From an uncultured Verrucomicrobiae bacterium (GTDB lineage Bacteria; Verrucomicrobiota; Verrucomicrobiia; Limisphaerales; Palsa-1400), in assembly GCA_963813995.1 (NCBI GenBank), contig CAWFAZ010000079.1, forward strand, positions 23,236 through 87,235: a stretch of 64,000 nucleotides of DNA, read 5' to 3'. The notes under the pieces were generated by a model. That model saw only the letters and a program-made list of their open reading frames with translations, ran no database searches and had not been told where the DNA came from. A program made the position numbers and the translations under genes. Shown in pieces: positions 1 through 31,536 of this stretch (position 1 is its first letter; every line of letters starts with the position of its first letter).

Positions 1-493
1 CGTCGGCGGGCGCGCGTTCGTTCACCGGCGGATGGTGCGGATAATCCTGCGGATGCGTCGTGAGCGCCTCCGGCATGAAGCCGATTTGGACATAAGGTTT
101 GAGGCCGCGTTGGAGCCAGGCATCGAAAATCTGATCGTTGATTGTCCAGTCATAAACTGGCTGGCCGTTCGCATCTTCCTTGTAGGCGCTGGTCGAACCC
201 CATTTCAACGCATACGAACCATCGCCGCTGGTGAGCAGATGATGCGCGCGAAAATAAACCTGCGGTCCGCCGAGCCTGCCGAGTTCAGACAACAATTTTT
301 TGCCGTCCTTCATGCAGGCGTAGTTCGGTTCGTCCGCGCCGAAGAAACGCCAGATCGGCGTCAATTCTCCGACCGGCTTGGCGGCGTCCACCGTGATGCT
401 GACGGGGAAAAAAGCGTTGGCGGCCGGGCCGGCAAAGGCAAATGGCGTGGACAAAAGAGCGGCTAAAAAGCGGGTGAGTTGGAGATGGCGCAT
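1..493 (-). CDS. Glycoside hydrolase family 39-like secreted protein, N-terminal part (gene continues beyond window start)
   Basis: Absent from the ORF track because there is no stop codon in the window. The reverse-strand ATG at 493-491 gives MRHLQLTRFLAALLSTPFAFAGPAANAFFPVSITVDAAKPVGELTPIWRFFGADEPNYACMKDGKKLLSELGRLGGPQVYFRAHHLLTSGDG...KWGSTSAY. This is a signal peptide followed by motifs I recognise from GH39 beta-xylosidase-like enzymes. Confidence 0.6.
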   Translation of the reverse strand, partial: MRHLQLTRFLAALLSTPFAFAGPAANAFFPVSITVDAAKPVGELTPIWRFFGADEPNYACMKDGKKLLSELGRLGGPQVYFRAHHLLTSGDGSYALKWGSTSAYKEDANGQPVYDWTINDQIFDAWLQRGLKPYVQIGFMPEALTTHPQDYPHHPPVNERAPAD

Positions 494-773
494 GATGCTG
501 TTAATATGGGCCATCGTATCGAATGGCCGGTCCGGATACAAAGGGGAAAACATTCTGGGCGCATCGCAATTTTTGGACACTTGTCAGCGCCGCCGGAGAT
601 CAAACCCCGATCTGCCGGGGGGAATGTCTAATGCCGAAATCCTAATGACCAATCAATGCTCAAATGACCCAATGACGAAAAGGCGCCCCGGCCAACCGAT
701 TCGTCATTCGGGCTTCGTCATTCCTTGGTCATTCGTGCTTGGACATTGGACATTCATCCGGCTAGGTTCTCTT

Positions 774-1592
774 ATGGCGCAGGAATTCGATACGATTGGC
801 ATCATCGCGGGCAACCGCTCGCTGCCGCTGGTCTTTGCCCGGCAGGCAAGGGCTTCGGGCGTCAAGCGGCTCGTGGCCGTTGCCTTCGCAAACGAAACCT
901 CTCCCGAACTGGCGGCGTTGGTGGATGACATTGTCTGGCTCAAGGTGGGCCAGCTTTCGAAGATGATCTCGGCCTTGAAGGAGCGGCGGGTCGGTTGCTG
1001 CGTCATGCTGGGACAAATCGCGCCGAGGAATTTGTTCGATGTCCGCCCGGATTTTCGCGCCGTGGCCCTGCTCATGAAGTTGAAGGAAAAAAACGCGCAT
1101 TCGATCTTCGGCGCCCTGGCGGAGGAGTTGAAGAAGGAAGGGATTGAGTTGATCGAACCGGTGCGCTGGCTGCGGCCGCTTATGCCGGAGACCGGCTTTT
1201 GTTTGGGACCGGCATTGAGCGGGGAGCAAAAGGCGGATGTGGCCCTGGGTTTGCGCATCGCCAAGGAGGTTTCCCGGCTGGAAATCGGGCAGACGGTGGT
1301 GGTCAAGGAGGGCGCGGTGCTGGCGGTGGAAGGGTTTGAAGGGACGGATAATTGTTTGCGGCGGGGCGGGTCGCTGGCCGGGAGCAGCGGTGGCGCGGTG
1401 GCGGTAAAAGTGGCCAGGGACAAGCATGATTTGCGATTTGACATTCCGTGCATTGGAGCGGGCACGCTGGAAACCTGCCGGGAGGCAAGAATCGCGGTGC
1501 TCGCCTTCGAATCAGGCAAGACATTGCTGATGGACCGGGAATTAGTGGAGACGCTGGCCAAAAAACACAAAATCAGCGTGGCGGCTTGTTGA
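774..1592 (+). CDS. lpxI: UDP-2,3-diacylglucosamine pyrophosphatase LpxI (DUF1009)
   Basis: Internal ATG at 774 of ORF 378..1592. MAQEFDTIGIIAGNRSLPLVFARQARASGVKRLVAVAF...GQTVVVKEGAVLAVEGFEGTDNCLRRGG...DIPCIGAGTLE matches the LpxI family pattern. Confidence 0.8.
   Translation: MAQEFDTIGIIAGNRSLPLVFARQARASGVKRLVAVAFANETSPELAALVDDIVWLKVGQLSKMISALKERRVGCCVMLGQIAPRNLFDVRPDFRAVALLMKLKEKNAHSIFGALAEELKKEGIELIEPVRWLRPLMPETGFCLGPALSGEQKADVALGLRIAKEVSRLEIGQTVVVKEGAVLAVEGFEGTDNCLRRGGSLAGSSGGAVAVKVARDKHDLRFDIPCIGAGTLETCREARIAVLAFESGKTLLMDRELVETLAKKHKISVAAC
1536..1592. repeat. Direct repeat copy A: last 57 bp of lpxI, duplicated at 5048-5104
   Basis: cgggaattAgtggagacgctggccaaaaaacacaaaatcagcgtggcggcttgTtga versus cgggaattGgtggag...cttgCtga at 5048-5104. 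There are two mismatches, and both are synonymous in the lpxI reading frame. Confidence 0.9.
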
Positions 1593-1656
1593 GCGCGGGG
1601 ACGTCAATTCTGATGTCGCCAAAGACTTGCCAAGCAGTTAGAATCCACTCGCACAA

Positions 1657-2775
1657 ATGGAAACGAATAATGAAATGGCTGCTCCGGTTGCCACTGAACC
1701 TCAAGAGCCAGAGGGGTTGGACAGCGACGCACTTGATTTGGGTGCGTTCCCAATCGACAGCCTGATGATTCGAACCGAGACTCGCTCGGTGTTTGAAATC
1801 GTCCGTAGAATTGATTCAGGCCAGTATATCATGGCGACGGATTTTCAAAGGGATTTTGTTTGGGAGAATTGGCGTCAGAGCAAACTAATCGAGTCCGCTA
1901 TCTTGCGAATCCCACTTCCGGTGTTTTATCTGGCGGAGACACTTGCCGGGAAGATCGTGGTGGTTGATGGGTTGCAGCGACTCACCACCTTTCATCGCTT
2001 TCTGAAGGGTGAGTTTGCGCTTGAGGGGTTGGCCTTTGCCAAGGATTTGGAGGGGAAGAAATTCAAGGACTTGGCGGCGAGCATGCAGAACCGGATCGAG
2101 GATACGCCCCTGACGCTCTACCTCATTGATGCAAAAGTTCCCGAGGACGCGAAATATGAAATATTCGAAAGGGTGAACAGTGGTATTCCGCTGACGCGGC
2201 AACAAATGCGGAACTGCCTCTTCGTTGGAGAAGCAACCCGGTGGCTTGGTCGGATGGCAAAGGATGAACAGTTCCTTCTAACGACTCAATGTGGGCTCAA
2301 CAGCAAAACCATGCGCGATCGGGAATGCATCAACCGCTTCGCGGGGTTCTACCTTTATGGCTACGAGCGTTACGATGGGCGAATGGAGAATTTCTTGAAC
2401 GAAACGTTGCGTCGGATGAACCGCACACTGAAATCTGGCGACTATGACAATCTCTCTGTTAAATTCCGCCACACTATGGAAGCCAATAAACAAATCTTCG
2501 GACGGCACGCGTTCAGGAAGACCCTGGCCAATCCTTTGAATCCTTGGGGCAGAAGCGTGATTAACGTTGCGCTGTTCGATGTGTTCTCAACCCTCCTTGC
2601 CGATATTCCGGCCGAAGCCATCAGGGCGAAAACAGCGGCCATTTGCAAAGCGAGCTCGGCGCTGCTTGAACGCCCGGTATTCGATGAGGCGATTAGTCGT
2701 TCAACGAACTCGACCCGGAATGTTCGCTATAGGTTCACTCTAGCCAAAGAAATGCTCCAGAAGGCCCTCGCATGA
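1657..2775 (+). CDS. DUF262 (ParB-like nuclease / GmrSD N-terminal type) protein
   Basis: FQRDFVW, LIESAILRIPLPVFYL and VVDGLQRLTTF motifs typical of DUF262. The stop overlaps the next start (ATGA at 2772-2775). Confidence 0.85.
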   Translation: METNNEMAAPVATEPQEPEGLDSDALDLGAFPIDSLMIRTETRSVFEIVRRIDSGQYIMATDFQRDFVWENWRQSKLIESAILRIPLPVFYLAETLAGKIVVVDGLQRLTTFHRFLKGEFALEGLAFAKDLEGKKFKDLAASMQNRIEDTPLTLYLIDAKVPEDAKYEIFERVNSGIPLTRQQMRNCLFVGEATRWLGRMAKDEQFLLTTQCGLNSKTMRDRECINRFAGFYLYGYERYDGRMENFLNETLRRMNRTLKSGDYDNLSVKFRHTMEANKQIFGRHAFRKTLANPLNPWGRSVINVALFDVFSTLLADIPAEAIRAKTAAICKASSALLERPVFDEAISRSTNSTRNVRYRFTLAKEMLQKALA

Positions 2776-4022
2776 TCTCATCAATACAGTTGGAGCATTT
2801 CAAATGCTTCGCCTGCTTAAGGCTTCCTTTTGCGCCGCTGACACTTTTAACGGGGCTCAATTCCGCCGGGAAGTCGAGCGTGATTCAGCCATTAGTGCTC
2901 CTCCACCAGACAATGATGGACAGGGGAAGTTCGAAGTCTCTCGTGCTGAATGGGCCGCTCCTGCGTCTGGGTCGATTTATAGATGTCGTGGATGAGGTGC
3001 ATGGGCGTGATTCATTCGCTATTAGTGTCGCTGCGAACGAAACCTCAATCCGCTGGCTATTCCGTTCAGCTTCAAGGGACTCTAACGTGGCCAATGTCTC
3101 CGAACGGGCGGTGACAGTCGGCGGGCGCCCGTTACCAGACTCCGATTTTGATGAGAGACGCTTCTTTCCCCGCTTTTTGATTCCACAGGAAGCACGGCGA
3201 CAAAGCTTGGAAAAGATCGAGGAATGGTTGGCTGGCTTGATTTATCTTTCCACGGAACGCATTGGACCGCGTGAAACCTACCTAGCTGATTCAGGTTTCT
3301 CGTCTTCAAGCAGCTCCGGCATTGGCGACATGCTGAGGGAGACTCACCCTATCGGTGCAGGGTTCCCAAACAAAGTCCAATTGGGTAGTGGAGGGCAATT
3401 GACACCGTGGTTTCTAATTCAACACGGAGAACAGCAGGTTCACCCTTCACTTTGCCTTGAGGCTACAACAACCCTGGCTCGGCAAGTCGAAGCACGCTTG
3501 GCTGATTTTTTTCCAGGTGCTGGCTTGGAATTGAAGATGAGCGAGGGGACTGATGTGGTCACGCTTCGAATTCGGACAAGCCTCGGCGGTCGGTTTTACC
3601 GTCCGCACAATGTGGGATATGGGCTGACGAACATCCTTCCCGTTTTGGCGGCGTGCTTGGCTGCATCACCGGGCCTGCCCGTGATTATCGAGAATCCCGA
3701 AGCTCATCTACATCCCGCCGCCCAAGCAAAGATGGGGCAGTTCGCCGCACAGGTGGCTGCCACCGGAGTTCAGGTAATCCTGGAATCACATAGCGACCAT
3801 GTTTTGAACGGTATCCGCAGGGCTGTTAAAGAGCACGTTTTGCCGCCGGAGTCCGTGGCGATCCATTACTTCCAGCGAAGTGGCCAGGAAAGCGAACCTG
3901 AATCACAGGTTGTCTCTCCCGTTCTTAACGAGGCCGGGGTTATTGACCATTGGCCAAAGGGATTTTTTGACCAATTTGACCGTGATCTTGAGGCGCTGAC
4001 TGATTGGGGTCACACTTCATGA
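2772..4022 (+). CDS. AAA-type ATPase with DUF3696-like C-terminus
   Basis: Walker A GLNSAGKSS near the N-terminus. IIENPEAHLHPAAQ...ILESHSDHVL is a Walker B/D-loop-like segment. The C-terminal HWPKGFFDQF motif is typical of DUF3696 ATPases. ATGA overlaps at both ends. Confidence 0.85.
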   Translation: MISSIQLEHFKCFACLRLPFAPLTLLTGLNSAGKSSVIQPLVLLHQTMMDRGSSKSLVLNGPLLRLGRFIDVVDEVHGRDSFAISVAANETSIRWLFRSASRDSNVANVSERAVTVGGRPLPDSDFDERRFFPRFLIPQEARRQSLEKIEEWLAGLIYLSTERIGPRETYLADSGFSSSSSSGIGDMLRETHPIGAGFPNKVQLGSGGQLTPWFLIQHGEQQVHPSLCLEATTTLARQVEARLADFFPGAGLELKMSEGTDVVTLRIRTSLGGRFYRPHNVGYGLTNILPVLAACLAASPGLPVIIENPEAHLHPAAQAKMGQFAAQVAATGVQVILESHSDHVLNGIRRAVKEHVLPPESVAIHYFQRSGQESEPESQVVSPVLNEAGVIDHWPKGFFDQFDRDLEALTDWGHTS

Positions 4023-4969
4023 GCCGGTTTTTGTTCAACGACGCCTCTTTACACGGACAGTTTTCCTCCCTCGCGCAGTTTCTTTCAGCTCTGGCGCTGG
4101 TCTTTCGGATGCGAGACGCGATGCAGAAATCGGGATTTCGTTTGGAAGTCAATCATCGCGTAGCGGAACAAGCGACAATCAGCGAGCAAACGCTACGTCA
4201 AGTCATGGGCAAAGTTGACAACACGGAGAACAAGCGCCGCGTTTTGTCGTGGCTCGACAAAGACGGACCCTTCTGGGACGACACGCCAACTCATTCTGCT
4301 GACGAGTACTTTGATTGCGAGGGTGCCATAGTAACCGAGACGGCATTAGCCGAAGCGTGCTGCTTGATGGCGCAATCCACGGCAGCGGCGGTGATCACCC
4401 TGACGCCTTCAAGGTTCACCAAACATCCGCTCGAAGTATTCTGGCGCTGTCGCGCCGACGGCGATCGGAGTTGGCAAATACCAAATTTCTTTTCGGAAAT
4501 TTCCCTCGTCGAGCACTTACGGCAAATTCAAAGGCCACCGACTACTTGGCAACAGGTCCTTGATTGGACAGAATCGAACTGCCCGTCTTTGTTGCTTTCA
4601 CCTGATATTTTGTCCCAATTGCCCACCACCTTTTATCCGAACGTAGCCCAGCGTGCTCAGGCTCTTTTCAAAGCCCTGCATGAAATCAATTCTGCCCTTC
4701 AGGACGGCAACAAACCGCGGTTTGACGAATTGCGCCGCTTGTGGATGGAGGGCGACAAGGCTCGGATGACAGACTCATCCGATAGGGAAAAGGCCGAATT
4801 CGTTAACGAAATGAAATTCAAGAACCCTCTGACCGAACGGGTCATTTCTTGCACATGGCACGCGAAAATTAAGACGCCTCAGTTCCGAATTCATTTCGAA
4901 TGGCCAAAGCAAAATCCCAAGGACGCTCTGTTCATTGGCTATTTTGGACCGAAGCTCACCAAGCGTTAA
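4019..4969 (+). CDS. Hypothetical protein, third gene of the DUF262/ATPase operon
   Basis: ATG at 4019 overlaps the ATPase stop (ATGA at 4019-4022). The 316-aa ORF begins MSRFLFNDASLHGQF and has a C-terminal PQFRIHFEWP...LFIGYFGPKL segment. I recognise no family. Confidence 0.6.
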   Translation: MSRFLFNDASLHGQFSSLAQFLSALALVFRMRDAMQKSGFRLEVNHRVAEQATISEQTLRQVMGKVDNTENKRRVLSWLDKDGPFWDDTPTHSADEYFDCEGAIVTETALAEACCLMAQSTAAAVITLTPSRFTKHPLEVFWRCRADGDRSWQIPNFFSEISLVEHLRQIQRPPTTWQQVLDWTESNCPSLLLSPDILSQLPTTFYPNVAQRAQALFKALHEINSALQDGNKPRFDELRRLWMEGDKARMTDSSDREKAEFVNEMKFKNPLTERVISCTWHAKIKTPQFRIHFEWPKQNPKDALFIGYFGPKLTKR

Positions 4970-4996
4970 GCTGGAGGTTATCAGCAGTAGCGTTGC

Positions 4997-5059
4997 GGGA
5001 GGACGGTTCGCGGTTGACGGTTCGAGAATTGAAGGGTTGTGCTCGAACGGGAATTGGTG
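4997..5059. repeat. Partial copy of a dispersed intergenic element (family also at 5556-5682 and 15166-15254)
   Basis: ggaggacggttcgcggttgacggttcgagaattgaagggttgtgctcgaacgggaattggtg aligns with 5556-5630. It merges into the lpxI-end repeat at gggaattggtg. Confidence 0.8.
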
Positions 5060-5104
5060 GAGACGCTGGCCAAAAAACACAAAATCAGCGTGGCGGCTTG
5101 CTGA
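5048..5104. repeat. Direct repeat copy B of the lpxI 3' end
   Basis: See 1536-1592. It would still encode ELVETLAKKHKISVAAC-stop. Confidence 0.9.
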
Positions 5105-5121
5105 ACTCTGGATTGTGGGAA

Positions 5122-5511
5122 TCAGTTTTCCGTGGCAAGCAAAACCCCTTCCTTAAACACAGTTTGAAAAAAATGATCCTGGCTCGCCTGCTTCTCCGCC
5201 AGCCGGCCCGGCGAGATGGGCAATAAAGTGAATGCGGGACGCGGCCATACCGGGCGCATCGCCCGACGCCACTGCCGCGCCGCCTCCAACTGCCGCTCCG
5301 CGCCGTCGGCAACGATGCACAAGTCCACGTCGCTGTCCGGCCGCGCCTCCCCGCGCGCGTGGGAGCCGAACAGGTAAACCGCCCGCAACGGCAACACGCG
5401 ATCCATCGCCTCAAGACACCGCGCCAGCGTTTGACGCTGGCTTTGCAATTCTGCCGGCAGGTTGTCCAAGAGCAATTTCACGCGGTTCAATTTAAGGCTT
5501 CCCTGCCTCAT
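5122..5511 (-). CDS. Nucleotidyltransferase-domain protein (MNT-type antitoxin-like), orphan
   Basis: Internal ATG at 5511 of ORF 5122..5667. The [21 protein letters not shown] minimal NTase motif is present. No HEPN partner is adjacent. Confidence 0.7.
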
Positions 5512-5555
5512 CGGCAAGCGGATACCGGGAAATGGAGGGCGGCGGCAGCCTCGCG

Positions 5556-5682
5556 GGGGGGACGGTTCGCGGTTGACGATTCGAGAATTGTTGAGAATTG
5601 AGGGGTTGTGCTCAAACAGGAATTGGTGTTCAATCATCGGGCCGATGAATACAACGCATCCATTCACAACGACGGCTTTTGA
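5556..5682. repeat. Full copy of the dispersed element, spanning the 5' leader and first 12 codons of the ybjQ-like gene
   Basis: ...gaggggttgtgctcaaacaggaattggtgttcaatcatcgggccgatgaatacaacgcatccattcacaacgacggcttttga recurs at 15166-15254 with few changes. Confidence 0.8.
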
Positions 5683-6016
5683 TGTGCCGGGTTACCGGAC
5701 AGTCAAGAATTTTGGGGTGGTCCGGGGGATCGTGGTGCGGTCGCGGTCGGTGGTGGGCAATTTCGGCGCGAGTATTCAGAGCTTCTTCGGCGGGAATATC
5801 ACCATTTACACCGAATTGTGCGAACAGACGCGGGACGACGCGTTTCGGGACATGATCATACACGCCAACCAGTTGAATGCCAACGCGGTGATAGGGGTGC
5901 GGTACGACGCCACGGAACTGGCGCCCGGCATAACGGAAGTGTTGTGCTATGGCACGGCGGTGCAGGTGGAGCCGGTGGCGCCCGGTTCCGGGCCACCAAG
6001 CCAGACGCCTCCGTAA
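5645..6016 (+). CDS. YbjQ/UPF0145 family protein
   Basis: ATG at 5645. [88 protein letters not shown] matches the YbjQ family. Confidence 0.8.
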
Positions 6017-6031
6017 GGAGCACAGCTTTTT

Positions 6032-6760
6032 ATGTCAGGACACAGCCGATGGGCAAAGGTAAAACATTTTAAAGGGGGGATTGACGCCAAGCGCGCGAAG
6101 ATATTCGCGAAGTTAAGCAAGGAAATCAGCATTGCGGCCAGGCTGGCCGGAGGGGATGCGGCGATGAATCCCCGTTTGCGGATGGTGTTGTTGAAATGCC
6201 GCGCGGCCAACATGCCCAATGACAACATCGAGCGCGCCATCAAGCGCGGCGCCGGCGGAGGCGAAGCCATCGAGTACACCGACCTCCATTACGAAGTGTT
6301 CGGCCCGCATGGCGTGGCCATCCTGGTTGAATTGAGCACGGACAATAAAAATCGCACCGCCGCGGAAATCCGCAGCCTGCTGGCCAAAAACGGCGGGACC
6401 ATTGCCACGGCCGGTTCGGTCACCCGGCTTTTTCAGCGCAAGGGGCAGATCATTGTGTTGCGCGAAGCGGCCGGCGAAGATCAATTGATGGAGCTGGCGC
6501 TGGAGGCGGGCGCGGAAGATTTCAGGAGCGACGCAGAGGGTTTCGAGATATTGACCGATCCCGCGCGCCTGGAAGCGGTGCATAAGGTGATCGAAGGCAA
6601 GGGAATCAAAGCCGCCGGAGCCGAGGTGACGTGGCTGCCGGTCAGCACGGTGCCGTTGAGCGACCCGAAGGCGGCCGGGGAAACCAGCCGCTTGATCGAT
6701 CTGTTGGAGGAGCACGACGATGTCAAAGACGTTTACTCCAACGCGGAATTCCCGGCATGA
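6032..6760 (+). CDS. YebC/PmpR family DNA-binding transcriptional regulator
   Basis: MSGHSRWAKVKHFKGGIDAKRAKIFAKLSKEISIAAR... is the canonical YebC N-terminus, and the ORF is full length. Confidence 0.9.
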   Translation: MSGHSRWAKVKHFKGGIDAKRAKIFAKLSKEISIAARLAGGDAAMNPRLRMVLLKCRAANMPNDNIERAIKRGAGGGEAIEYTDLHYEVFGPHGVAILVELSTDNKNRTAAEIRSLLAKNGGTIATAGSVTRLFQRKGQIIVLREAAGEDQLMELALEAGAEDFRSDAEGFEILTDPARLEAVHKVIEGKGIKAAGAEVTWLPVSTVPLSDPKAAGETSRLIDLLEEHDDVKDVYSNAEFPA

Positions 6761-6895
6761 TATGGGTGCCGGTGACATTTTATCACTTGGCCAGGCCATT
6801 GTAATCCCGCAAGATATTGCCAGATCCAGACCCCCTTACGCCTTTGGCCTTGGCTGCGTTCGGTTATGACGGTGATCGTGGAAAAGTGATCTCCA

Positions 6896-7990
6896 TTACT
6901 TGTTTATGATTGTGTCGATGACGGCCCATGTCGCAATGACACTGGCTGCCGTCGTCAAGGCACCGTACCGGGAATAGATTTCGGACGTCTGTTTGCTGGC
7001 CTCCTGGATATTGTGGTTGGGATTCGAAATCTGAGGAACAGACGCATTACGGATGGCAAACCATTTTGTATTCGAAAATTGCTGAAGCGCCATGCCGACC
7101 ATCGCGTCGCCCATGTCGCATACTTGGCCCAATCCTTGGAGTTTGTAATAATTAGTTGAGTCATCGAAACCGAAGAAATCAGTTGTGACAATCGTATCCT
7201 GTGAAGAAGCCCAAATTTTGGGTGTCTGGCGGGCATTGGGGATACGAGCGGCGTTGATTTTGGTGAGCGCTGGGGTGATTAAAGCCAGGCAGGCGGAGGG
7301 CAAATAGGCGGTTTCGAAAATCGCAGCATGCCAGGGCTTAGTCTTGAATTGAGTGGTGCAGTCAAATCTGACCAGCCCAGCAATCACGACATCCCCCAAG
7401 GCAACCTCTTTTCCTATTCCACCGCCCGTACCCGTGGTGATGAATAGTTTGGGCTGAATGGTCTGCGCGATTTCAGCCATCAGTTGGCGGACAGGCGTGG
7501 CAGGTCCGTCGTAGTCGAGGTGCAGCCCCGATTTGAATACAAGCACACGAGCGCCACCAATAACGCATGGGAAGTAAAGACCAAGACTGTGGTAAAAGCG
7601 CGCCATATCGGCCACTTTTGAATTAAACGGCGCATTCGCACCCGTGACCAATGGAATATAAGCGGCAACATTATGCCGATATTCATACCAATCCGATGTC
7701 GTGTAACCGGGTGTGAAAAGCGCGGCCAAGGCGGCTGCTTCGGCAGATGTCCAGGTTAGAACAACCGCATCATATCCACGAAATCTTGAAAGATCGTCAG
7801 TTTCCGCTGGCGCCGGGTGGAGAGGGGCGGGTGTCGGGGCGCGTCCTGACGGCCAGGGAACAGGACTTGGCAGGCGATCACTGGCCTTCGGCACGCGCGC
7901 ACCCTTGACACCGGCGGATTTGAAGCGAGCTTGCGGCTCCTCCGGGTTGTAGTTGAGAACCAAGTCCGCAAGATTAACAATTCTTGCCAT
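6896..7990 (-). CDS. Phosphorylase-superfamily (PNP/UDP_1-like) protein with a Pro-rich N-terminal extension
   Basis: 364-aa ORF. FITTGTGGGIG and VCDMGDAMVG segments resemble the glycine-rich and acidic catalytic segments of nucleoside phosphorylase / MTA nucleosidase folds. The assignment rests on motif resemblance only. Confidence 0.45.
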   Translation of the reverse strand: MARIVNLADLVLNYNPEEPQARFKSAGVKGARVPKASDRLPSPVPWPSGRAPTPAPLHPAPAETDDLSRFRGYDAVVLTWTSAEAAALAALFTPGYTTSDWYEYRHNVAAYIPLVTGANAPFNSKVADMARFYHSLGLYFPCVIGGARVLVFKSGLHLDYDGPATPVRQLMAEIAQTIQPKLFITTGTGGGIGKEVALGDVVIAGLVRFDCTTQFKTKPWHAAIFETAYLPSACLALITPALTKINAARIPNARQTPKIWASSQDTIVTTDFFGFDDSTNYYKLQGLGQVCDMGDAMVGMALQQFSNTKWFAIRNASVPQISNPNHNIQEASKQTSEIYSRYGALTTAASVIATWAVIDTIINK

Positions 7991-8047
7991 AAAGTTTCAT
8001 TTCTGCATCCAACTATTAAGCCAATCCACGACCCCAACAGCGCTTCG

Positions 8048-8488
8048 TTATTTATGAAAATGGCCAAAAGCCAGCGCCCCAGCCTTGACGGTAGTTTTGG
8101 TGATCGCGGCCTCCAAAGCAGGACCCAAACCATCTTGAGCCTTTAATGGCGGGCGCACACCGGAACCTGCCTCTCGGGTGAGTTCCGAAACAGTCGTTCC
8201 TAAGGCATAAGCTAGTTTCAACAGACTGAGAAAAGTCACGTTCCGAGTGCCCCTTTCTACATCGCAGATGTACGTGCGGTGCAGGCCGGACTCCTCTCCC
8301 AAGGCCATCTGGCTCATCCTCCGGCTCTCACGAACCCTACGGACAGCTTTTCCCAGAATTGTAAGTTCCACATTCACAGGGAATTGAGGGGAAATGGGAA
8401 AACGCGCCACATTGGGCTGCGGAAGCGCCCTTTCACCCTCCGCTCCCGCAGCGAAGTCTGTTTTCTGGCGACTGGCCGAGTTTACCAT
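8048..8488 (-). CDS. XRE-family helix-turn-helix regulator
   Basis: LGKAVRRVRESRRMSQMALGEESGLHRTYICDVERGTRNVTFLSLLKLAYALGTTVSEL is a classic Cro/C1 HTH. It lies 57 nt upstream of 6896..7990 on the same strand. Confidence 0.75.
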   Translation of the reverse strand: MVNSASRQKTDFAAGAEGERALPQPNVARFPISPQFPVNVELTILGKAVRRVRESRRMSQMALGEESGLHRTYICDVERGTRNVTFLSLLKLAYALGTTVSELTREAGSGVRPPLKAQDGLGPALEAAITKTTVKAGALAFGHFHK

Positions 8489-8700
8489 GCACTACCGTTG
8501 ATATCGCTGTCGGCTGGCCATAGGGAACAAAATCCTACGACCGGAAGTTTCTTATTGCCCGCTTCGCTTAAACCATTGATTCTCAAGACGCCTCCACAAG
8601 AGCCGAGGCCCAAATTTAATTCGTCGCATTTTCATCGTTTCCCGTCATCATCTGAATAGAGAGATGACCCGACGACGTTACGCCGGCTTTCATCTTTTTA

Positions 8701-9831
8701 TCACGGAATGCCGACGACGCGGTAGAATCGTTGCGCTGCCGTTATCGTGTCAGTCCAGGAGGTGCTGGTTGTATAGCCCAAAGTCTGCCAGTTCTTGGCC
8801 AGCGGGCCTCTGTAGTCAATCCGAAAATTGACAGCGTTGCTAAGGGTCCAGTTAAGAACCACTGACCCACTTTGCTCCTGGATGTATAAATCGGTCAGAA
8901 AAGGAGGAGACGTGGAGCCACTGTTGGCACTGTTGGTGAAGTAGCTGGCATAGTACATGCGCTGCACCGTGTTGGTATAGGGCAAATCAGTTGGGTAGAG
9001 CACGTTGTTCCCCAGCAAAAGAACCTGTGCTGCCACTCCGATTCCCGGAACCAGCCAGTAATAGTACTGATTCGTGTTTATATCCAGAAGCAGCGGAGGA
9101 TCGCTCACGACGGAGACTGTGTAGCTTTCAATTTCATGGACCCGCAACGCAGGAACTGCGCCAATCTCAGGCAAGACCAGGGTTCCGAAGGCGTCCACGG
9201 AGGCGCTATAACTATAATAGTTGCTGACAGCGATTATCTCGAAATAAATGGATAACCAATCAAGGGAGCCGCTCCACGTTTGGCCAAATTGGACGGTGGA
9301 AGGAATATCAACCGTAGGCGGGACAAATACTGCCCATTCCGTTACAGGCACATCCTCCGGCGCGTCGAGACCGTAACATAGCCGGCCCGAATTGGTGCCG
9401 GAATCTGTAAATCCGTAGTATAGCCACCCGATTTGATTCGTTGGTTCCAGTGTGTCCTGCTCCGCGTAAGTGGCGTCAGGGAACTGCCCGCTATTAGCTC
9501 CGTCTTCCGGCGCAATGATATCGGTGCGGAGAACGGTTTCGTAGGGTTGTTGCGCATTGGAGAAATTCCAGTTTTGCGCGACGTTGGTGCATCCGCCGGG
9601 GGGCGGCGGCCCCCCATTGGTGGCCAGCGCGAGCATGCCTGTAACGTTCACATTGGTGCTGTAGTAGGAGCGGTTATACTCTCCGAATTGGCATGGCAGA
9701 CTGTTTGTGGTGAAGGTAGTCTGGGCTGGGGCAGATACGCTCGCCATGGCACTTAAACAAAGGAACAGTTGGAGTTTTGCTTTTGCCTTACCCGAAACAA
9801 TTGGGTTATCGTAGAACGGTTTCATATCCAC
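8701..9831 (-). CDS. Secreted hypothetical protein
   Basis: 376-aa ORF with an N-terminal hydrophobic signal-like segment (LQLFLCLSAMASVSAPAQT). I recognise no family. Confidence 0.55.
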   Translation of the reverse strand: MDMKPFYDNPIVSGKAKAKLQLFLCLSAMASVSAPAQTTFTTNSLPCQFGEYNRSYYSTNVNVTGMLALATNGGPPPPGGCTNVAQNWNFSNAQQPYETVLRTDIIAPEDGANSGQFPDATYAEQDTLEPTNQIGWLYYGFTDSGTNSGRLCYGLDAPEDVPVTEWAVFVPPTVDIPSTVQFGQTWSGSLDWLSIYFEIIAVSNYYSYSASVDAFGTLVLPEIGAVPALRVHEIESYTVSVVSDPPLLLDINTNQYYYWLVPGIGVAAQVLLLGNNVLYPTDLPYTNTVQRMYYASYFTNSANSGSTSPPFLTDLYIQEQSGSVVLNWTLSNAVNFRIDYRGPLAKNWQTLGYTTSTSWTDTITAAQRFYRVVGIP

Positions 9832-9949
9832 TCATGAATCGACAAGAATCGCTGCGACGTTACGGAAATAACGGGGCTAAATTGTCAGTTTGACAAGCGG
9901 GCGGGGTTCTCGATCGATCTGCGGGTAAAAGAGAGGGACGGGACGGGGC

Positions 9950-10795
9950 TTACCACCACTCCGGGTGGGGCTGATTGTCGCTGTTCCACAGACGCCGACT
10001 TTGATCAGTTGCGGCAATCCAAAAGGATTGTTGGCTGAACTGCACGTGCGCATCACCAAAAAGCATGTTGGCCCCGCCGTCGTGCCCGTTTCCCACCCCG
10101 AGATAGCCCAAGGGTTCGACGATGTATGGGAAGACAATGTATATCTGATTGGGAATGTTAGTTTGGGGCTGAGTGCCAAGGATGGCATCGATGAACGTCG
10201 CACTATCGCCTATCGTGATCATTTGCGCCGGCGTTATGACCCTGTTGGCAGACGTTGGCTCTCGCGAGCCGGTCGCAAGATTTAAGTCGCCGCCAAGGCC
10301 AGGATTGTATGGTGGAGACCCCTTCCAGACCGCGCCAAGAGCATTGTAACCGTAATGGGGTGTAATCGGAGCTCGAGCCAATCGGAAAATATTGATAAAC
10401 TGAGTTGATGGTGTTTGTTGGAGCGGACAGTAAAATCCACTGTCCGGCACGAACTCGCGCAACGCCGGTTCCCAAGCGCCGAAAACCCCATCCGAGGTGG
10501 CCAGAGGGTAACAATTACCGTCTTGGGCGTAGAGGTGCAATGCGATGCCCAATTGATGGAGATTGCTTTTGCACTGAGCAGTGCGGGCTTGGCGTTTGGC
10601 GTTGCCAAGGGCAGGCAAAACCAAGCTGGCGAGACTTGCGATGACCGCGATGACGACCAGCAATTCCAGGAGCGTAAACCCAGCCTCGGCTTCTAACTTC
10701 CTCGGAGCGGCGTCTTTTGACGAAACGGCGCTCGTGGAAGGGCAGACTGTCAAACCCACAAGGCCTGGACAAAGTTCGAAACCGGTTGTATTCAT
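9950..10795 (-). CDS. DUF1559 protein with prepilin-type N-terminal cleavage/methylation domain (H-X9-DG)
   Basis: [54 protein letters not shown] plus a C-terminal [15 protein letters not shown] (H-X9-DG) motif. The start is placed at the internal ATG (10795) of ORF 9950..10882. Confidence 0.8.
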
Positions 10796-19690: not shown

Positions 19691-20097
19691 GCATCAACTT
19701 CAAGGGAAAAACCTGTGGCGTGCCAAAGAAGCTCTTCCGCCTCGGTGTGGCTGACCACATTGGCCTGTTCGTAAAGAAAATTGTTCCGCTTTCGGCGACA
19801 GGCATCAAAATAAACAGCCTTTTGGGCAAATGCCGGGGCAGCCGCCTTGAGGGCCAAAAAGGTATTGTAATGCCCGCCTCCGTCGCTCTTGACCCGGTAT
19901 CCGCTGGCGCGAGTAATGATATTGGCCAGGATTCTGGCGGCGTCATAGGCATGGCTAAAGCGTCCGTCATCGGAGAGTCCCCTGATTTGCGCGTCGGCAA
20001 GGTTTCGATGAACGACCGCCCGCAAGTCCTTAATCCCGGTCCGGCTTGTCGGTTCCGCCGCGACGCGATTTTCGGCCAGTAATTGCTTCCAAGTCAC
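19657..20097 (-). CDS. HEPN-like toxin partner of the adjacent nucleotidyltransferase
   Basis: 146-aa helical protein located immediately after, and overlapping, a wHTH-NTase gene, which is the usual MNT/HEPN arrangement. The call rests on context and size, not on a clear R-X4-H motif. Confidence 0.55.
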   Translation of the reverse strand: MTWKQLLAENRVAAEPTSRTGIKDLRAVVHRNLADAQIRGLSDDGRFSHAYDAARILANIITRASGYRVKSDGGGHYNTFLALKAAAPAFAQKAVYFDACRRKRNNFLYEQANVVSHTEAEELLWHATGFSLEVDAWLKKHHPNLI

Positions 20098-20668
20098 TAT
20101 TCGATCCTAAAACGAAAAGAAGCGGCTTTCCAAGCACAGACTGGACAAAATGGCTGTTGCGAGCTTTTTGCGAGAATTCCTCGGGAGTGTAAAGGGTGGG
20201 ATTGATCTGCCGCCGCAATTTCCCGGTTGCCTGTTCAAGCAGGGGGGACAAATTGATCATTTTGACGGAGCCAATGATGAGCAAATCAATGTCGCTGCCG
20301 GAAGTTTCCGTGCCGGTGGCAATCGAACCATAAACGGCTGCCACTTTGATTTTTGGGGCGAGCGGGGCCAGTTCGCCATGAAGGACATCAACCAAACCGG
20401 ACGTTTTGATCAACAGGGAGCGCAGTTCTGGAAAAACGGGGCATTCCTCGTTGGCTTGAAAATAGGTGCGGTTTCCGCTCCGGGACATCTTAAGGATGCC
20501 GGCCTGCGTAAACTTTGCCAGATCGCGCTGCAAGGTGGATGGTCTGACGCCAAAATGGTTTGCCAGTTCCGTCGCATAAATCGGCTGATGCGAATTCAAA
20601 AGCAGGGCGGACAGCAGCCTTTGCCGGGTGCTGGAAAAGAGAACGCTGGCGATGGATGATTTACTCAT
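20030..20668 (-). CDS. ArsR-like winged-helix + nucleotidyltransferase (MNT) fusion protein
   Basis: ATG at 20668. The N-terminal RQRLLSALLLNSHQPIYATELANHFGVRPSTLQRDLAKFTQAGIL is a wHTH. YGSIATGTETSGSDIDLLIIG is the minimal NTase motif. Confidence 0.75.
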   Translation of the reverse strand: MSKSSIASVLFSSTRQRLLSALLLNSHQPIYATELANHFGVRPSTLQRDLAKFTQAGILKMSRSGNRTYFQANEECPVFPELRSLLIKTSGLVDVLHGELAPLAPKIKVAAVYGSIATGTETSGSDIDLLIIGSVKMINLSPLLEQATGKLRRQINPTLYTPEEFSQKARNSHFVQSVLGKPLLFVLGSNSDLEAITGRKSRRGGTDKPDRD

Positions 20669-21009
20669 TATGCGTATAATGAAACGCAAAATGCGTAAAT
20701 GTCAAGTGTGTTCCTATGTATCAATCTCGCGCTTCTTGCCATTTTTAGCGGCTTTGCGTTGAAATTGGGAAACGGGTCAGATCCGTCCCTCCCCGTCCCA
20801 CCCGTCCGACTGATCGACGTAAATCCCTCACTGACAACTACTTAATTTAAAAATGCCGAAAATTTCACGGTTTTTTCCGGCGCTTCAAAATGAAAGGCAA
20901 AACCCGCGAAGAATTTTGTCCCACACCCTGAGAGAGGCGAATGGCAATTGGAGTGCTTGACGCCTTCAACCAAGCTTCTAACATCCTGCTGCGTTTGAAC
21001 ACGAAGTTG

Positions 21010-29075: not shown

Positions 29076-29152
29076 GCGAGCGTAGCTCAGCCTGGTAGAG
29101 CATCACGTTGCCAACGTGAGTGTCGAGGGTTCGAATCCCTTCGCTCGCTCCA
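29076..29152 (+). tRNA. tRNA-Gly (GCC), canonical, CCA encoded
   Basis: gcgagcgTAGCTCAGCCTGGTAGAGCatcacgtTGCCAAcgtgagtgtcgaGGGTTCGAATCCCttcgctcgcTCCA. It has a standard D-loop GG and a standard TTCGAAT T-loop. Confidence 0.95.
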
Positions 29153-29284
29153 TCTCCATCAACGGCCCCGTCTTTCGACGGGAATTCGTCCAAGACAACC
29201 GCAATTCTTCCGCCATCATCCGAGGCGAAATAATTTTTTGAAATATTTCTTGCATGTAACCGATGGCTTGTGCTATCGTCTTAC

Positions 29285-29517
29285 AAGTTCGATGAAAACT
29301 TGCTTGAACATATCAGCCACGAGTTGGCCGACGATGACGGTCGCAAAAGCGACACGTCATAGCCGGATTACCCGGGGCTATGTGTTTAGCCTTGGACTAT
29401 CCCTGGCGCCAATCGGGCAACGGCCCGAAGGTAATTCGGATAGACCCGGTGTAAGCAGGTAACGAATCGAAAGAGAATTTCTTCACCCTGCTTACCGCGT
29501 GTAAGCAGGGTTTTTTA
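29285..29517 (+). ncRNA. Structured leader or small RNA with mutually exclusive terminator/antiterminator
   Basis: A possible promoter (ttgcat-18 nt-tatcgt) lies near 29252-29281. Several local hairpins are present, for example atgacg-gtcgcaaaagcgac-a-cgtcat. An identical 11-mer gtgtaagcagg occurs at 29449-29459 and 29499-29509, and both copies can pair with cctgcttac at 29487-29495. Family unknown. Confidence 0.4.
29486..29517 (+). terminator. Rho-independent terminator
   Basis: ccctgcttac-cgcgt-gtaagcaggg followed by tttttt. Confidence 0.75.
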
Positions 29518-29520
29518 TTT

Positions 29521-29863
29521 TCCCTGTATAACTGAGACGAGAATGGCGGATAACGAAAGATGAACAGTCTGTGAACAAGAATAGCGCGACATCCAGGTGA
29601 TGTCTTCTGGCGACAAACTGAATTTGGCGAGGACGAGCAGAGAAGCCTCACCGGTGGGGTCTGCCCACAGCCGGAAGACAGAGCCGCCAGGACGATCCAG
29701 ACGAATTTTGCATTTACATTTTAAGGGCTTCGCAGGAGGTGTGCCCCCAAACACCGAAACAGCCGCCGTGAAACCGCGGGTTGGTATCGCAAGATAGCAA
29801 GAGGTGTTTGTTCTTTGTTGAAATGGCATGGGCCGGAAGCGTGGCAACGCTTCCGGCCCTTTT
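29521..29863 (+). ncRNA. Second non-coding stretch ending in a strong hairpin-T tract. Function unknown.
   Basis: There is no credible ORF on either strand. It ends with a 12-bp GC-rich hairpin plus tttt. I could not match it to SRP, 6S, tmRNA or RNase P. Confidence 0.3.
29830..29863 (+). terminator. Rho-independent terminator-like hairpin 7 nt upstream of the first tRNA-like unit
   Basis: gggccggaagcg-tggcaa-cgcttccggccc followed by tttt. Confidence 0.7.
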
Positions 29864-29869
29864 ACTTTC

Positions 29870-29943
29870 GCGGCTGTGATTTAACAGCAGAATGCCTCCC
29901 TGCCAGGGAGGACGCCCGGGCGCAACCCCCGGCAGCCGCACCA
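29870..29943 (+). tRNA. tRNA-like unit 1, anticodon GCC (Gly), non-canonical T-loop CGCAACC
   Basis: Acceptor gcggctg/cagccgc; 3-bp D stem att/aat with loop taacagcag; anticodon arm cctcc-cuGCCag-ggagg (GCC at 29902-29904); T arm ccggg-cgcaacc-cccgg; A73; CCA encoded. Confidence 0.7.
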
Positions 29944-29952
29944 ATTCTTGAC

Positions 29953-30024
29953 AGGCTGCGCGTCAGCATGCGGCAGAGTTTCCAAAACTCAGCCCACTCC
30001 GGGTGGCACGGAGGCAGCCTGCCA
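29953..30024 (+). tRNA. tRNA-like unit 2, anticodon CCA (Trp), T-loop GGUGGCA
   Basis: Acceptor aggctgc/gcagcct (A1-U72) with G73, as in bacterial tRNA-Trp; anticodon loop ttCCAaa (29982-29984) on a 4-bp stem; T arm ctccg-ggtggca-cggag; CCA encoded. Confidence 0.6.
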
Positions 30025-30033
30025 ATTTTTTAC

Positions 30034-30108
30034 GGGGTCGTGGCAGACAAGCAATGCACTTGCCCTGCAAGCAAGCCGATGTGGGAGCGTTACCCACCGA
30101 CTCCACCA
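30034..30108 (+). tRNA. tRNA-like unit 3, anticodon UGC (Ala), T-loop AGCGUUA, C33
   Basis: Acceptor ggggtcg/cgactcc containing G3-U70 (30036/30102) plus A73, the Ala identity set; anticodon arm cttgc-ccUGCaa-gcaag (30066-30068); T arm gtggg-agcgtta-cccac; CCA encoded. Confidence 0.7.
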
Positions 30109-30114
30109 TTTCAC

Positions 30115-30187
30115 TGCGGGGAGAATGAGATTCAGGCGAGCCTCATAAGCTCAGCCTTCGTGGGTGCAACTCCCGCCCCCGCTACCA
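30115..30187 (+). tRNA. tRNA-like unit 4, anticodon CAU (Met/Ile2), weakest fold
   Basis: Anticodon loop ctCATaa (30144-30146); T arm gtggg-tgcaact-cccgc; acceptor tgcgggg/ccccgct with a U1-U72 mismatch; unusual D arm gaat-gag-attc; A73 and CCA. Confidence 0.4.
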
Positions 30188-30203
30188 ATTTAAGGTTCAA
30201 AAT

Positions 30204-30279
30204 GCTGCCGTGGCCGAACACATGAGGCATCCGTCTTCTAAACGGAACGATGCAGGTGGAATTCCTGCCGGCAGTGCCA
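30204..30279 (+). tRNA. tRNA-like unit 5, anticodon UCU (Arg), T-loop UGGAAUU
   Basis: Acceptor gctgccg/cggcagt; D stem gcc/ggc; anticodon arm tccgt-ctTCTaa-acgga (30237-30239); T arm gcagg-tggaatt-cctgc; G73; CCA. Confidence 0.7.
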
Positions 30280-30280
30280 T

Positions 30281-30354
30281 TGCCAGGTGGTGTCAAAGTA
30301 GCACGGCGGCCTGTTAAGCCGCTTGTCTTGGTGCGAGTCCAAGTCTGGCAGCCA
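30281..30354 (+). tRNA. tRNA-like unit 6, anticodon GUU (Asn), T-loop UGCGAGU
   Basis: Acceptor tgccagg/tctggca (U1-A72) with G73, as in E. coli tRNA-Asn; D stem gtg/cac; anticodon arm gcggc-ctGTTaa-gccgc (30313-30315); T arm cttgg-tgcgagt-ccaag; CCA. Confidence 0.7.
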
Positions 30355-30361
30355 ATTTCAC

Positions 30362-30452
30362 GGAAGGCAGGCAGATACAAGCTGGCTGCACCTGTCCCGA
30401 AAACAGGATCGGCTCAAACCCGAGGTCGGAGCGTTACCGACGCCTTCCGCCA
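30362..30452 (+). tRNA. tRNA-like unit 7, class II, anticodon CGA (Ser), T-loop AGCGUUA, C33
   Basis: Acceptor ggaaggc/gccttcc; 4-bp D stem gcag/ctgc; anticodon arm cctgt-ccCGAaa-acagg (30398-30400); long variable arm tcgg-ctcaaac-ccga (30409-30423); T arm gtcgg-agcgtta-ccgac; G73; CCA. Confidence 0.7.
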
Positions 30453-30481
30453 ATTCCAAACCCATAACGAAAGGAAACCCC

Positions 30482-30637
30482 ATGAAATCCATTGTTCGCC
30501 ATCAAAGCCAGTTGCTCTTTCGCAAGAGCTACAAACCAAAGCGTGCCATTCGAATCCGGCCGCTGCCGCGGCTGAATATTGTGTTCCGCCCCGTGAACCG
30601 GTTTGGCGTGAAGCCGCAATTGACAATCGTCTCGTAG
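30482..30637 (+). CDS. Possible small, very basic protein (51 aa) inside the tRNA-like array
   Basis: aaaggaaacccc ATG (Shine-Dalgarno-like). MKSIVRHQSQLLFRKSYKPKRAIRIRPLPRLNIVFRPVNRFGVKPQLTIVS. Its last three sense codons and stop (tag at 30635-30637) overlap the first 10 nt of unit 8 (30628-30637). No family recognised. Confidence 0.3.
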   Translation: MKSIVRHQSQLLFRKSYKPKRAIRIRPLPRLNIVFRPVNRFGVKPQLTIVS

Positions 30638-30698
30638 CTCAAGAGCAGAGCGCCCGGCTGATAACCGGAAGACCGCGGAGCGTTACCGCGCGGGACGA
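30628..30698 (+). tRNA. tRNA-like unit 8, anticodon GAU (Ile), canonical-looking D arm, T-loop AGCGUUA, no CCA
   Basis: Acceptor cgtctcg/cgggacg; ta-gctc-aagagca-gagc; anticodon loop ctGATaa (30660-30662); T arm cgcgg-agcgtta-ccgcg; A73 followed by tcc. Confidence 0.65.
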
Positions 30699-30739
30699 TC
30701 CGTCTTCGCTCTCCGAGCTTCGGCTCGGCGAGCCAAATT
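30699..30739 (+). repeat. Conserved ~40-nt motif, copy 1 (also at 32098-32138 and 33487-33527)
   Basis: tccgtcttcgctctccgagcttcggctcggcgagccaaatt. It can form gctc-t-ccgagc-ttcg-gctcgg-c-gagc. It follows directly after a tRNA-like 3' end. Confidence 0.7.
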
Positions 30740-30814
30740 CCCCGGGTAGCTGAGGCAGATTAGCGCCTCCCTGAAGAGGAGGAGACGTTGGCGCGATACC
30801 AACCCCGGGGGCCA
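30740..30814 (+). tRNA. tRNA-like unit 9, anticodon GAA (Phe), T-loop CGCGAUA
   Basis: Acceptor ccccggg/cccgggg; ta-gctg-aggcagat-tagc; anticodon arm cctcc-ctGAAga-ggagg (30773-30775); T arm gttgg-cgcgata-ccaac; G73; CCA. Confidence 0.7.
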
Positions 30815-30818
30815 TTTT

Positions 30819-31256: not shown

Positions 31257-31262
31257 CTTCCC

Positions 31263-31340
31263 GCTCTCAAAGTGTAATCAGATCTGCACGCCGCCCTGCG
31301 AAGGCGGAGGTTCGTGGTGCAAATCCACGTGAGAGCGCCA
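31263..31340 (+). tRNA. tRNA-like unit 10, anticodon GCG (Arg), T-loop UGCAAAU
   Basis: Acceptor gctctca/tgagagc; D stem gtg/cac; anticodon arm ccgcc-ctGCGaa-ggcgg (31298-31300); T arm cgtgg-tgcaaat-ccacg; G73; CCA. Confidence 0.7.
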
Positions 31341-31345
31341 CTTTT

Positions 31346-31442
31346 AAGTGCAGAGTGCTGAGTGCAAAATGCAGAGTGAAGAGTGGAAGGACGCGAACAT
31401 GCCGCTTTTCACTCTGCACTTTGAATTCACAACTTTGCACTT
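31346..31442. repeat. Empty copy of the purine/pyrimidine long hairpin (no ORF inside)
   Basis: aagtgcagagtgctgagtgcaaaatgcagagtgaagag ... cttttcactctgcactttgaattcacaactttgcactt. It uses the same sequence vocabulary as the arms around the four-helix ORF. Confidence 0.7.
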
Positions 31443-31449
31443 TTGCAAT

Positions 31450-31524: not shown

Positions 31525-31536
31525 ATTCCTCATGGA

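Follow-up and report, generated by a model that had tools for sequence, protein, structure and literature searches.

The DNA analysed here (the window) is a stretch of 64,000 nucleotides from contig CAWFAZ010000079.1 of an uncultured soil bacterium of the Limisphaerales (Verrucomicrobiota), in which the genes lpxI and ybjQ are separated by a spacer carrying an operon of the Menshen (NsnABC) anti-phage system, an orphaned antitoxin gene and a direct repeat of 57 bp that copies the 3' end of lpxI (Table 1). The original prediction, drawn from the sequence alone, had recognised the operon and had read the repeat as the signature of a Menshen element that integrates into lpxI and restores it. The identity of the operon is borne out by profile searches. 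The repeat, when the locus is set beside empty and differently filled alleles in related bacteria, appears to be a scar of stacked spacer alleles and not an attachment site or insertion footprint of Menshen.

Table 1. Features of the lpxI-ybjQ region, numbered from the first nucleotide of the window (L086 and L087 are Menshen operons from unrelated neighbourhoods; the other L numbers are related lpxI-ybjQ loci).
Feature	Position	Strand	Remarks
lpxI (UDP-2,3-diacylglucosamine hydrolase), intact	774-1592	+	Pfam LpxI_N 1e-31, LpxI_C 2.2e-40
Repeat copy 1 (Z), functional lpxI 3' end including TGA	1536-1592	+	contains core GGAATTAGTG at 1538-1547
Spacer leader, 14 nt, GCGCGGGGACGTCA	1593-1606	+	resident-allele DNA, not Menshen; Menshen homology begins only at 1607
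Imported Menshen unit: 50-nt leader with promoter-like site, then nsnA-nsnB-nsnC	1607-4969	+	77-78% nucleotide identity to L086 and L087
Promoter-like site TCGCCA-17-TAGAAT in the conserved Menshen leader	1616-1644	+	consensus scan match only; leader conserved in L086 and L087
nsnA, 372 aa, ParB-like DUF262 predicted sensor with C-terminal domain	1657-2775	+	PADLOC NsnA; Pfam GmrSD_N
nsnB, 416 aa, ABC/OLD-type ATPase with DUF3696 tail	2772-4022	+	PADLOC NsnB; Pfam AAA_21, AAA_15, DUF3696
nsnC, 316 aa, two-domain predicted effector	4019-4969	+	PADLOC NsnC PDLC03896
Junction DNA after the nsnC stop, 19 nt	4970-4988	+	no match in related spacers or other Menshen loci
Duplicate of the distal spacer end: segment upstream of MNT with heptads, and ybjQ promoter copy ending in core GGAATTGGTG (5050-5059)	4989-5059	+	
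Repeat copy 2 (pseudo-Z), relic of the lpxI 3' end, not preceded by a gene body	5048-5104	+	joined on its left, at the shared core, to the promoter copy
MNT-type nucleotidyltransferase, antitoxin half of a HEPN-MNT pair, HEPN deleted	5122-5517	-	Pfam NTP_transf_2 5.8e-11; PADLOC PDC-S09
Native distal spacer end: heptads and ybjQ promoter region, core at 5619-5628	5556-5644	+	right half present in empty sites L001 and L004; conserved to L007-L009
ybjQ, conserved right flank of the hot-spot	5645-6016	+	Pfam YbjQ_1 2e-29
yebC	6032-6760		next after ybjQ

The Menshen operon and its predicted action

Menshen was first validated in Solibacillus silvestris StLB046 and has been surveyed by Li et al. 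(Nucleic Acids Research (NAR) 2025, PMC12065111), where Verrucomicrobiota are already among its 27 host phyla. In that survey NsnA is marked by the motifs QRxxxW, DGxQR and FxxxN and by a C-terminal DNA-binding (ParBDB) domain, NsnB by a Walker A motif GxxxxGKS, a Walker B motif ending in EN, a GxG motif and a C-terminal DUF3696 helix, and NsnC by an inactive PIN-like (inPIN) N-terminus joined to one of 15 effector domains, mostly BECR RNases (PMC12065111). Each of the three open reading frames (ORFs) in the window matches its corresponding PADLOC model full-length: NsnA at 2.6e-115 (model positions 39-383 of 385), NsnB at 1.9e-100 and NsnC at 1.7e-84 (residues 3-316 against model positions 2-319 of 319). 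Pfam likewise upholds the predicted pairing of a DUF262 protein with an AAA ATPase that ends in DUF3696, with GmrSD_N at 4e-22 in NsnA and AAA_21 at 8.9e-22, AAA_15 at 8.1e-18 and DUF3696 at 1.1e-15 in NsnB. The translation of nsnA contains QRDFVW, DGLQR and FERVN, agreeing with the motifs listed in PMC12065111, and that of nsnB contains the Walker A motif GLNSAGKS, the Walker B motif VIIEN (the EN variant) and GYG. The genes are co-oriented in the order A-B-C, and the nsnA/nsnB and nsnB/nsnC overlaps by ATGA that had been pointed out at 2772 and 4019 are both seen in the ORFs.

Since the N-terminus of NsnA has a short loop only and no extra N-terminal domain, the system is assigned to type I. 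The coupled gene order, the motif sets of NsnA and NsnB, the DUF3696 tail, and an NsnC of about 316 aa with two domains and a conserved His/Arg/His set in its C-terminal sheet are all as in type I Menshen, from which the window differs in nothing essential; the locus adjoins the remnant of a toxin-antitoxin (TA) pair and not BREX or restriction-modification genes, which adjoin about 28% of the published loci (PMC12065111). Judged by these profile and motif matches, positions 1607-4969 are confirmed as a type I Menshen operon of predicted anti-phage function, an ordinary addition to a known system. The suggestion that the third gene might be a variant effector is not sustained, given that an existing NsnC model covers it end to end. 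About 100 NsnC homologues were found, most of them of similar length, and the closest from other contexts (78% and 74%) both lie within the same A-B-C operon.

The AlphaFold2 model of NsnC has two domains, with a predicted local distance difference test score (pLDDT) of 93.4. Across its aligned homologues H281 and H292 never vary and K283 and R290 scarcely do, and H281, R290 and H292 fit the H-R-H triad reported for PB-BECR1, the commonest effector (PMC12065111). No match to NsnC was obtained in Pfam, a permissive search included, or in a PDB profile search; Foldseek against the PDB returned none for the full model or for residues 243-316, a cut that probably removed the BECR helix, and hhalign against an approximate YafQ sequence was negative. 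By analogy with the published proteins, NsnC is probably composed of an inactive PIN-like N-terminus and a BECR-type RNase C-terminus with H281, R290 and H292. Published Menshen homology would further have NsnA, with its ParB-like DUF262 domain and DNA-binding C-terminal domain, sense invading DNA and then activate the ABC-type ATPase NsnB, which would in turn license the two-domain effector NsnC to degrade nucleic acid.

Homology to L086 and L087 spans 1607-4968 only, beginning 50 nt before nsnA, and because it stops at 4968 the Menshen unit is taken to end with the nsnC stop at 4969. The guanine-plus-cytosine (GC) content of this unit is 52% as against about 60% in its flanks, which counts as support for a foreign origin. 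A plasmid or phage vector was considered as its carrier and set aside, the searches having given only short matches at 70% to plasmid DUF262/DUF3696 genes and none in phages.

The variable spacer and its doubled flanks

The lpxI-ybjQ spacer was compared in twelve relatives, comprising the genome regions L001-L004 and the metagenome loci L073-L080. By its LpxI relatives the organism is a Verrucomicrobium of Limisphaerales type. The lpxI genes of the relatives are 89-98% identical to that of the window, and the gene order lpxI-ybjQ-yebC is kept in L001-L004, in L006-L009 and in seven of the eight metagenome loci, L076 stopping short of ybjQ. Two of the sites, L001 and L004, are empty: the lpxI stop directly abuts TTGRGG..TTGTGCT..GGAATTRGTGTTGAATC..ATG(ybjQ), and the lpxI tail is present in a single copy. 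By its conservation out to L007-L009, the segment between the lpxI stop and the ybjQ start is evidently the ybjQ promoter region. The single tail copy at these uninterrupted junctions accords with the view of the operon as acquired defence cargo, for which the original prediction had proposed just this comparison.

The other ten relatives (L002, L003 and L073-L080) carry different inserts of 0.58 to 6.2 kb, whose cargo includes HEPN-MNT pairs (MNT, minimal nucleotidyltransferase), a DUF2281-like two-gene module, DUF2293, DUF433/DUF5615, an AAA_14-DUF4143 ATPase (PADLOC PDC-S01), and zinc-ribbon and TPR proteins. Menshen is found only in the window, tblastn and blastn having detected none in the eleven related spacers examined. 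Window positions 1593-4988 have no nucleotide homologue in any of the ten cargo-bearing relatives, and none was found for 1607-4969 in the nine other lpxI-ybjQ spacers compared. Because the relatives are empty or differently filled, and none of them holds Menshen, the spacer is read as a strain-variable islet: in this Limisphaerales lineage it is, to judge from the alleles compared, a small hypervariable site with 0 to 6.2 kb of TA and defence cargo, bracketed by lpxI and by ybjQ-yebC throughout L001-L004 and L073-L080.

The two copies of the lpxI tail in the window (1536-1592 and 5048-5104) are identical at 55 of 57 positions, with an exact stretch of 44 nt (1545-1588 and 5057-5100); no match arose in any of 100 shuffles. 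As the original prediction stated, the two mismatches (tta/ttg and tgt/tgc) are both synonymous in the lpxI frame. What that prediction missed is a second duplication adjoining repeat copy 2, in which 4997-5059 matches 5556-5628 and which includes the three heptads CGGTTCG CGGTTGA CGGTTCG at 5004-5022. The whole segment 4989-5059 matches the DNA upstream of ybjQ in relatives (66/70 in both L075 and L078, 63/68 in L002 and 65/71 in L077). The lpxI tail and the ybjQ promoter have a short identity in common, CGGGAATTGGTG, which is 12 nt long in L002, L075, L078 and L079 and 10 nt long in the window; this core, GGAATTRGTG, is present only at the lpxI end, in the ybjQ promoter and at the duplication junctions, and is absent from other cargo boundaries.

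From left to right the locus thus runs lpxI body-core-lpxI tail, cargo 1, heptads-promoter copy-core-lpxI tail relic, MNT, and finally heptads-promoter-core-ybjQ. This order reads as two complete spacer units in tandem, joined exactly at the core that is native to the lpxI 3' end as well as to the ybjQ promoter. Unit 1 would consist of the lpxI tail, the 14-nt leader, Menshen, the heptads and the ybjQ-promoter copy, and unit 2 of the lpxI-tail relic, MNT, the heptads and the ybjQ promoter. The left end of unit 1 resembles the alleles L077 and L080, which match window positions 1500-1606 at 101/107, and the native distal spacer end in unit 2 has a 10-nt tandem extra, GAGAATTGTT.

The same promoter-core-lpxI tail-MNT junction is found in L073, at 5521-5620, without Menshen and with 473 of 497 positions identical over unit 2; upstream of the shared junction L073 carries the DUF4143 ATPase, an intact HEPN-MNT pair and other genes, and it has a second MNT copy. 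The MNT 3' end that follows repeat copy 2 in the window comes, in L076 and L078, after the native lpxI stop, and copy 2 is therefore taken as the relic of a former lpxI-MNT arrangement. Among 78 lpxI loci, lpxI-tail relics occur only in the window, in L073 (twice) and in L079, so that the duplication seems local to one lineage.

Further rearrangements were seen in two of these relatives. At 495-1330 L073 has a DUF433 antitoxin gene and, behind it, the pseudogene of a DUF5615-like toxin, which is interrupted by an in-frame stop, truncated at its 3' end and fused to a third lpxI tail copy (1062-1124); a 5'-truncated DUF2281-like gene comes next. In L079 a 22-nt sequence, AAATTCAAATTAAGGGACTACC, occurs twice, at 5463-5484 and 5951-5972, with GAATTAGTG beside each; directly next to one occurrence is the ybjQ-promoter segment in inverted orientation, and directly next to the other is the lpxI-tail relic. 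From its layout L079 looks as if an element with inverted-repeat ends had entered the core, duplicating 9 nt, and had afterwards undergone a partial inversion; on sequence, L079 can be derived from the same ancestral junction as the window and L073.

The MNT gene of unit 2, whose TTG start at 5517 is inferred from the ORFs of relatives, has lost its partner. Intact HEPN-MNT pairs are kept at the same site in L002 and L073, and the window MNT is 98-99% identical to theirs; the likeness to a type VII HEPN-MNT system ends there, as the HEPN toxin gene is missing from the window and an orphan antitoxin gene is left. The junction of the HEPN deletion, stop-A(A/C)(C/T)CTGG(A/G)TTG, is common to the window, L073, L079 and L076/L078, and since this shared joint lies directly after the lpxI stop, a single ancestral deletion of HEPN is indicated. 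The window has a second MNT-like gene at 20030-20689 on the minus strand, which encodes a fused helix-turn-helix (HTH) and minimal nucleotidyltransferase protein of 219 aa (HTH_20, NTP_transf_2/Polbeta).

The three tandem heptads (CGGTTSN) follow a run of G and occur at 5004-5022 and 5563-5581 and nowhere else in the window. They are also found at the distal end of several different cargos (L002, L003, L075, L077 and L078) and, on the other strand, upstream of MNT, and could by their position be an MNT/HEPN operator or a recombination-prone end. A dispersed mobile-element end was considered for them and rejected, since the 64-kb window holds no copies beyond the two local ones and 72 genome loci gave no exact match. 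Three viral contigs that matched the 19-nt degenerate heptad pattern had no extended similarity by blastn-short and were taken as chance.

A further observation concerns lpxI itself. In the window's clade the lpxI codons at 1537-1551 read GGGAATTGGTG, the same as the ybjQ promoter core, and the outgroups L001 and L003 have GGGAGTTGATY, with Ile for Val (GAGTTGATY where the window's clade has GAATTGGTG). This clade difference may stem from past gene conversion from a promoter-derived duplication junction into the essential lpxI, which may in turn fit repeated cycles of duplication and collapse.

How the locus may have arisen

The repeats stop at 1592 and start again at 5048, so neither reaches the Menshen-specific DNA, and the intervals between Menshen and the repeats (1593-1606 and 4989-5059) consist of resident spacer-allele sequence. 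Because these boundaries differ, because L073 shares the junction and because L076 and L078 share the tail-MNT order, the 57-bp repeat is regarded as separate from the arrival of Menshen. The claim that the duplication is the mark of Menshen integrating into lpxI and restoring it is not supported, on all of these grounds.

The explanation that we consider probable, with some reserve, is that a type I Menshen operon occupies an lpxI-ybjQ hot-spot in which tandem spacer units had formed at the core and in which the cargo of unit 1 was replaced later. In a first step, two copies or alleles of the locus would have recombined at the core, by unequal crossover or by a microhomology-mediated join, to give the tandem units; this step would belong to an ancestor common to the window strain and L073, and probably L079. 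In a second step, a fragment from elsewhere comprising the promoter and nsnABC would have replaced the cargo of unit 1 by illegitimate recombination at 1606/1607 and at about 4969-4988. Neither joint has a target duplication or terminal repeats. Two steps of this kind appear to be the most economical account of the alleles compared. The absence of an integrase from the insert, which had been predicted, extends further than the insert: the Pfam scan of the insert genes and of ORFs of at least 200 aa at window positions 6-26 kb contained no recombinase family, nor was one seen in L002 among the ORFs scanned over the 8 kb that precede lpxI. Insertion at a transfer RNA (tRNA) or non-coding RNA target was rejected, Rfam having given no match in window positions 1-10000 and no tRNA being present near the site.

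Several points weigh against this account. The heptad-containing end recurs with several different cargos. The order of events is drawn from about a dozen metagenome-derived alleles with no rooted phylogeny. The extra lpxI-tail relic of L073 (1062-1124) has its left edge only about 10 nt from the core, and the L079 junction was also struck at the core, by a repeat-ended insertion; breakpoints clustered within about 10 nt could point to a preferred or enzyme-directed site and not to chance microhomology, and an identity of 12 nt would be short for a RecA-dependent crossover. As regards the operon, the published fold assignments of NsnC (inPIN and BECR) were not reproduced by Foldseek or hhalign.

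An import in a single step is an alternative that we regard as unlikely. DNA of a sister strain with a single-unit Menshen spacer would have recombined homologously in lpxI and joined illegitimately at the identity of 10-12 nt; the right join, between the donor ybjQ promoter and the recipient lpxI tail, may then have produced the duplication and brought in Menshen in one event. The junction does fall exactly at the microhomology, and the two units look like different alleles, the flanks of unit 1 being similar to L077/L080 and those of unit 2 to L078/L073/L079. The 57-bp copies also differ at two positions, copy 2 having the TGC and TTGGTG states that are common in relatives. However, L073 shares the junction and unit 2 behind other cargo, so that the junction must be older than Menshen or the same join must have happened twice, and no single-unit Menshen allele was found by tblastn or blastn among the eleven related spacers.

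The original prediction, in the form of a 3.4-kb integrase-less Menshen element that brought along a substitute lpxI tail and inserted site-specifically at the lpxI 3' end through a recombinase acting in trans, with the 57-bp copies as attachment sites attL and attR, fares worse still and is rather improbable. In its favour, direct repeats flank the operon and copy 1 leaves lpxI intact, the core GGAATTRGTG is common to three sites, and the lpxI-tail relics of L073 and L079 have their breakpoints within about 10 nt of that core. Moreover, the arrangement X-core-Z / P-core-Z / P-core-Y is what would be expected from the accretion of two elements sharing one attP. However, the putative P arm belongs, like the core and the right flank, to the native sequence: all of it is found in the empty sites L001 and L004, and as the ybjQ promoter region it is conserved as far as L007-L009. 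The ends of Menshen (1607 and 4969) lie off the repeats. The junction is also present in L073 without Menshen, the core is missing from other cargo boundaries, and no recombinase was found among the ORFs scanned within 20 kb downstream or, in L002, within 8 kb upstream. Duplications of the lpxI tail occur at 3 of 78 lpxI loci, all of one lineage, and the relatives of this Menshen operon occupy unrelated sites without such repeats.

Some recombinase-directed process at the core has a slim chance of being correct. Its specific form, in which GGAATTRGTG is a genuine crossover site of an unlinked recombinase and the spacer an integrase-less cassette dock, is slightly less credible again; complete spacer units, with a spare lpxI tail at the head of each, could then be excised as circles and stacked, which would explain why the relics of L073, the insertion in L079 and the junction in the window all break within about 10 nt of one point. 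An integron-like or attC-like reading of the 110-bp junction was rejected, both of its halves being native flank DNA and no core being found at other cargo boundaries, and so was an integron-type cassette array, as no integrase was found and the core does not lie between other cargo modules.

That the tandem arrangement is an assembly artefact, with Menshen and MNT spacers of different strains chained through their shared repeats, is very improbable even for a strain-variable, repeat-bounded locus whose source is evidently metagenome-assembled, since the hybrid of promoter copy and lpxI tail would exist in neither single-unit strain, the junction recurs in two Logan assemblies from different runs (L084 over 1972-5086 at 99.97% and L085 over 3370-5086 at 100%), another contig continues over 5088-9967 at 100% identity (all three have an end within the repeat, which is usual for short-k assemblies), and a diverged form of the junction is present in the JGI contig L073.

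Likeness to known systems and significance

The locus has features of two known kinds of variable site. In E. coli pan-genome hot-spots (Hochhauser et al. 2023, cited in PMC12065111), a pair of core genes brackets strain-specific cargo, as lpxI and ybjQ bracket TA modules and known or candidate defence genes here, and empty and occupied lpxI-ybjQ alleles likewise coexist among close relatives. The lpxI-ybjQ islet differs in being very small (0-6.2 kb) and integrase-free, in holding stacked partial copies of its own flanks, and in varying from the nucleotide right after the lpxI stop. Integrative elements that use the 3' end of a gene, such as islands of the tRNA or guaA type, also leave a direct repeat of that end and keep the gene intact through the proximal copy, and the three-site pattern of the window is superficially like a tandem accretion of islands. 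The empty sites also hold one copy of the tail. However, no recombinase family was found among the insert genes and the larger neighbouring ORFs scanned, the cargo boundaries lie off the repeats, one putative att arm is the native promoter of the next gene, and the junction is not specific to the element, being present in L073, which lacks this cargo.

Other features of the window and of one relative were recorded in passing. Shortly before the lpxI start there is an imperfect 37-nt inverted repeat (622-658/719-755), whose arms are 76% complementary and separated by 60 nt. On the minus strand, 6896-8488 encodes a PNP_UDP_1 phosphorylase-superfamily protein of 364 aa adjoining an XRE-type HTH protein, the latter matching PADLOC restriction-modification 'control protein' models at 5.9e-17; with a GC content of 49-50%, the stretch may be another small variable module. 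ARAGORN places 14 tRNA genes within 4 kb at 29076-33094 on the plus strand (Gly, Ala, Arg, Asn, Ile, Phe, Cys, Arg, three Leu, Ile(tat), Glu and Lys), an array that may be chromosomal or derived from a mobile element. In L002, the closest genome, about 4.5 kb upstream of lpxI, 2328-3758 encodes a 476-aa insertion-sequence-type transposase with a DruA-like N-terminus and DDE_Tnp_1, which is absent from the visible sequence of the window.

For Menshen itself, the window adds one operon in a phylum where the system was already recorded and leaves the knowledge of the system unchanged. The locus serves as a worked example that defence genes may lie between two direct copies of a gene's 3' end without these being att sites: comparison with empty and differently filled alleles allows the repeat to be read as a scar of recombination in a hot-spot that is tiny and free of recombinases. 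Should the clustering of breakpoints at the core turn out to be directed by an enzyme, the locus would offer a model of the docking of integrase-less defence cassettes beside an essential gene.

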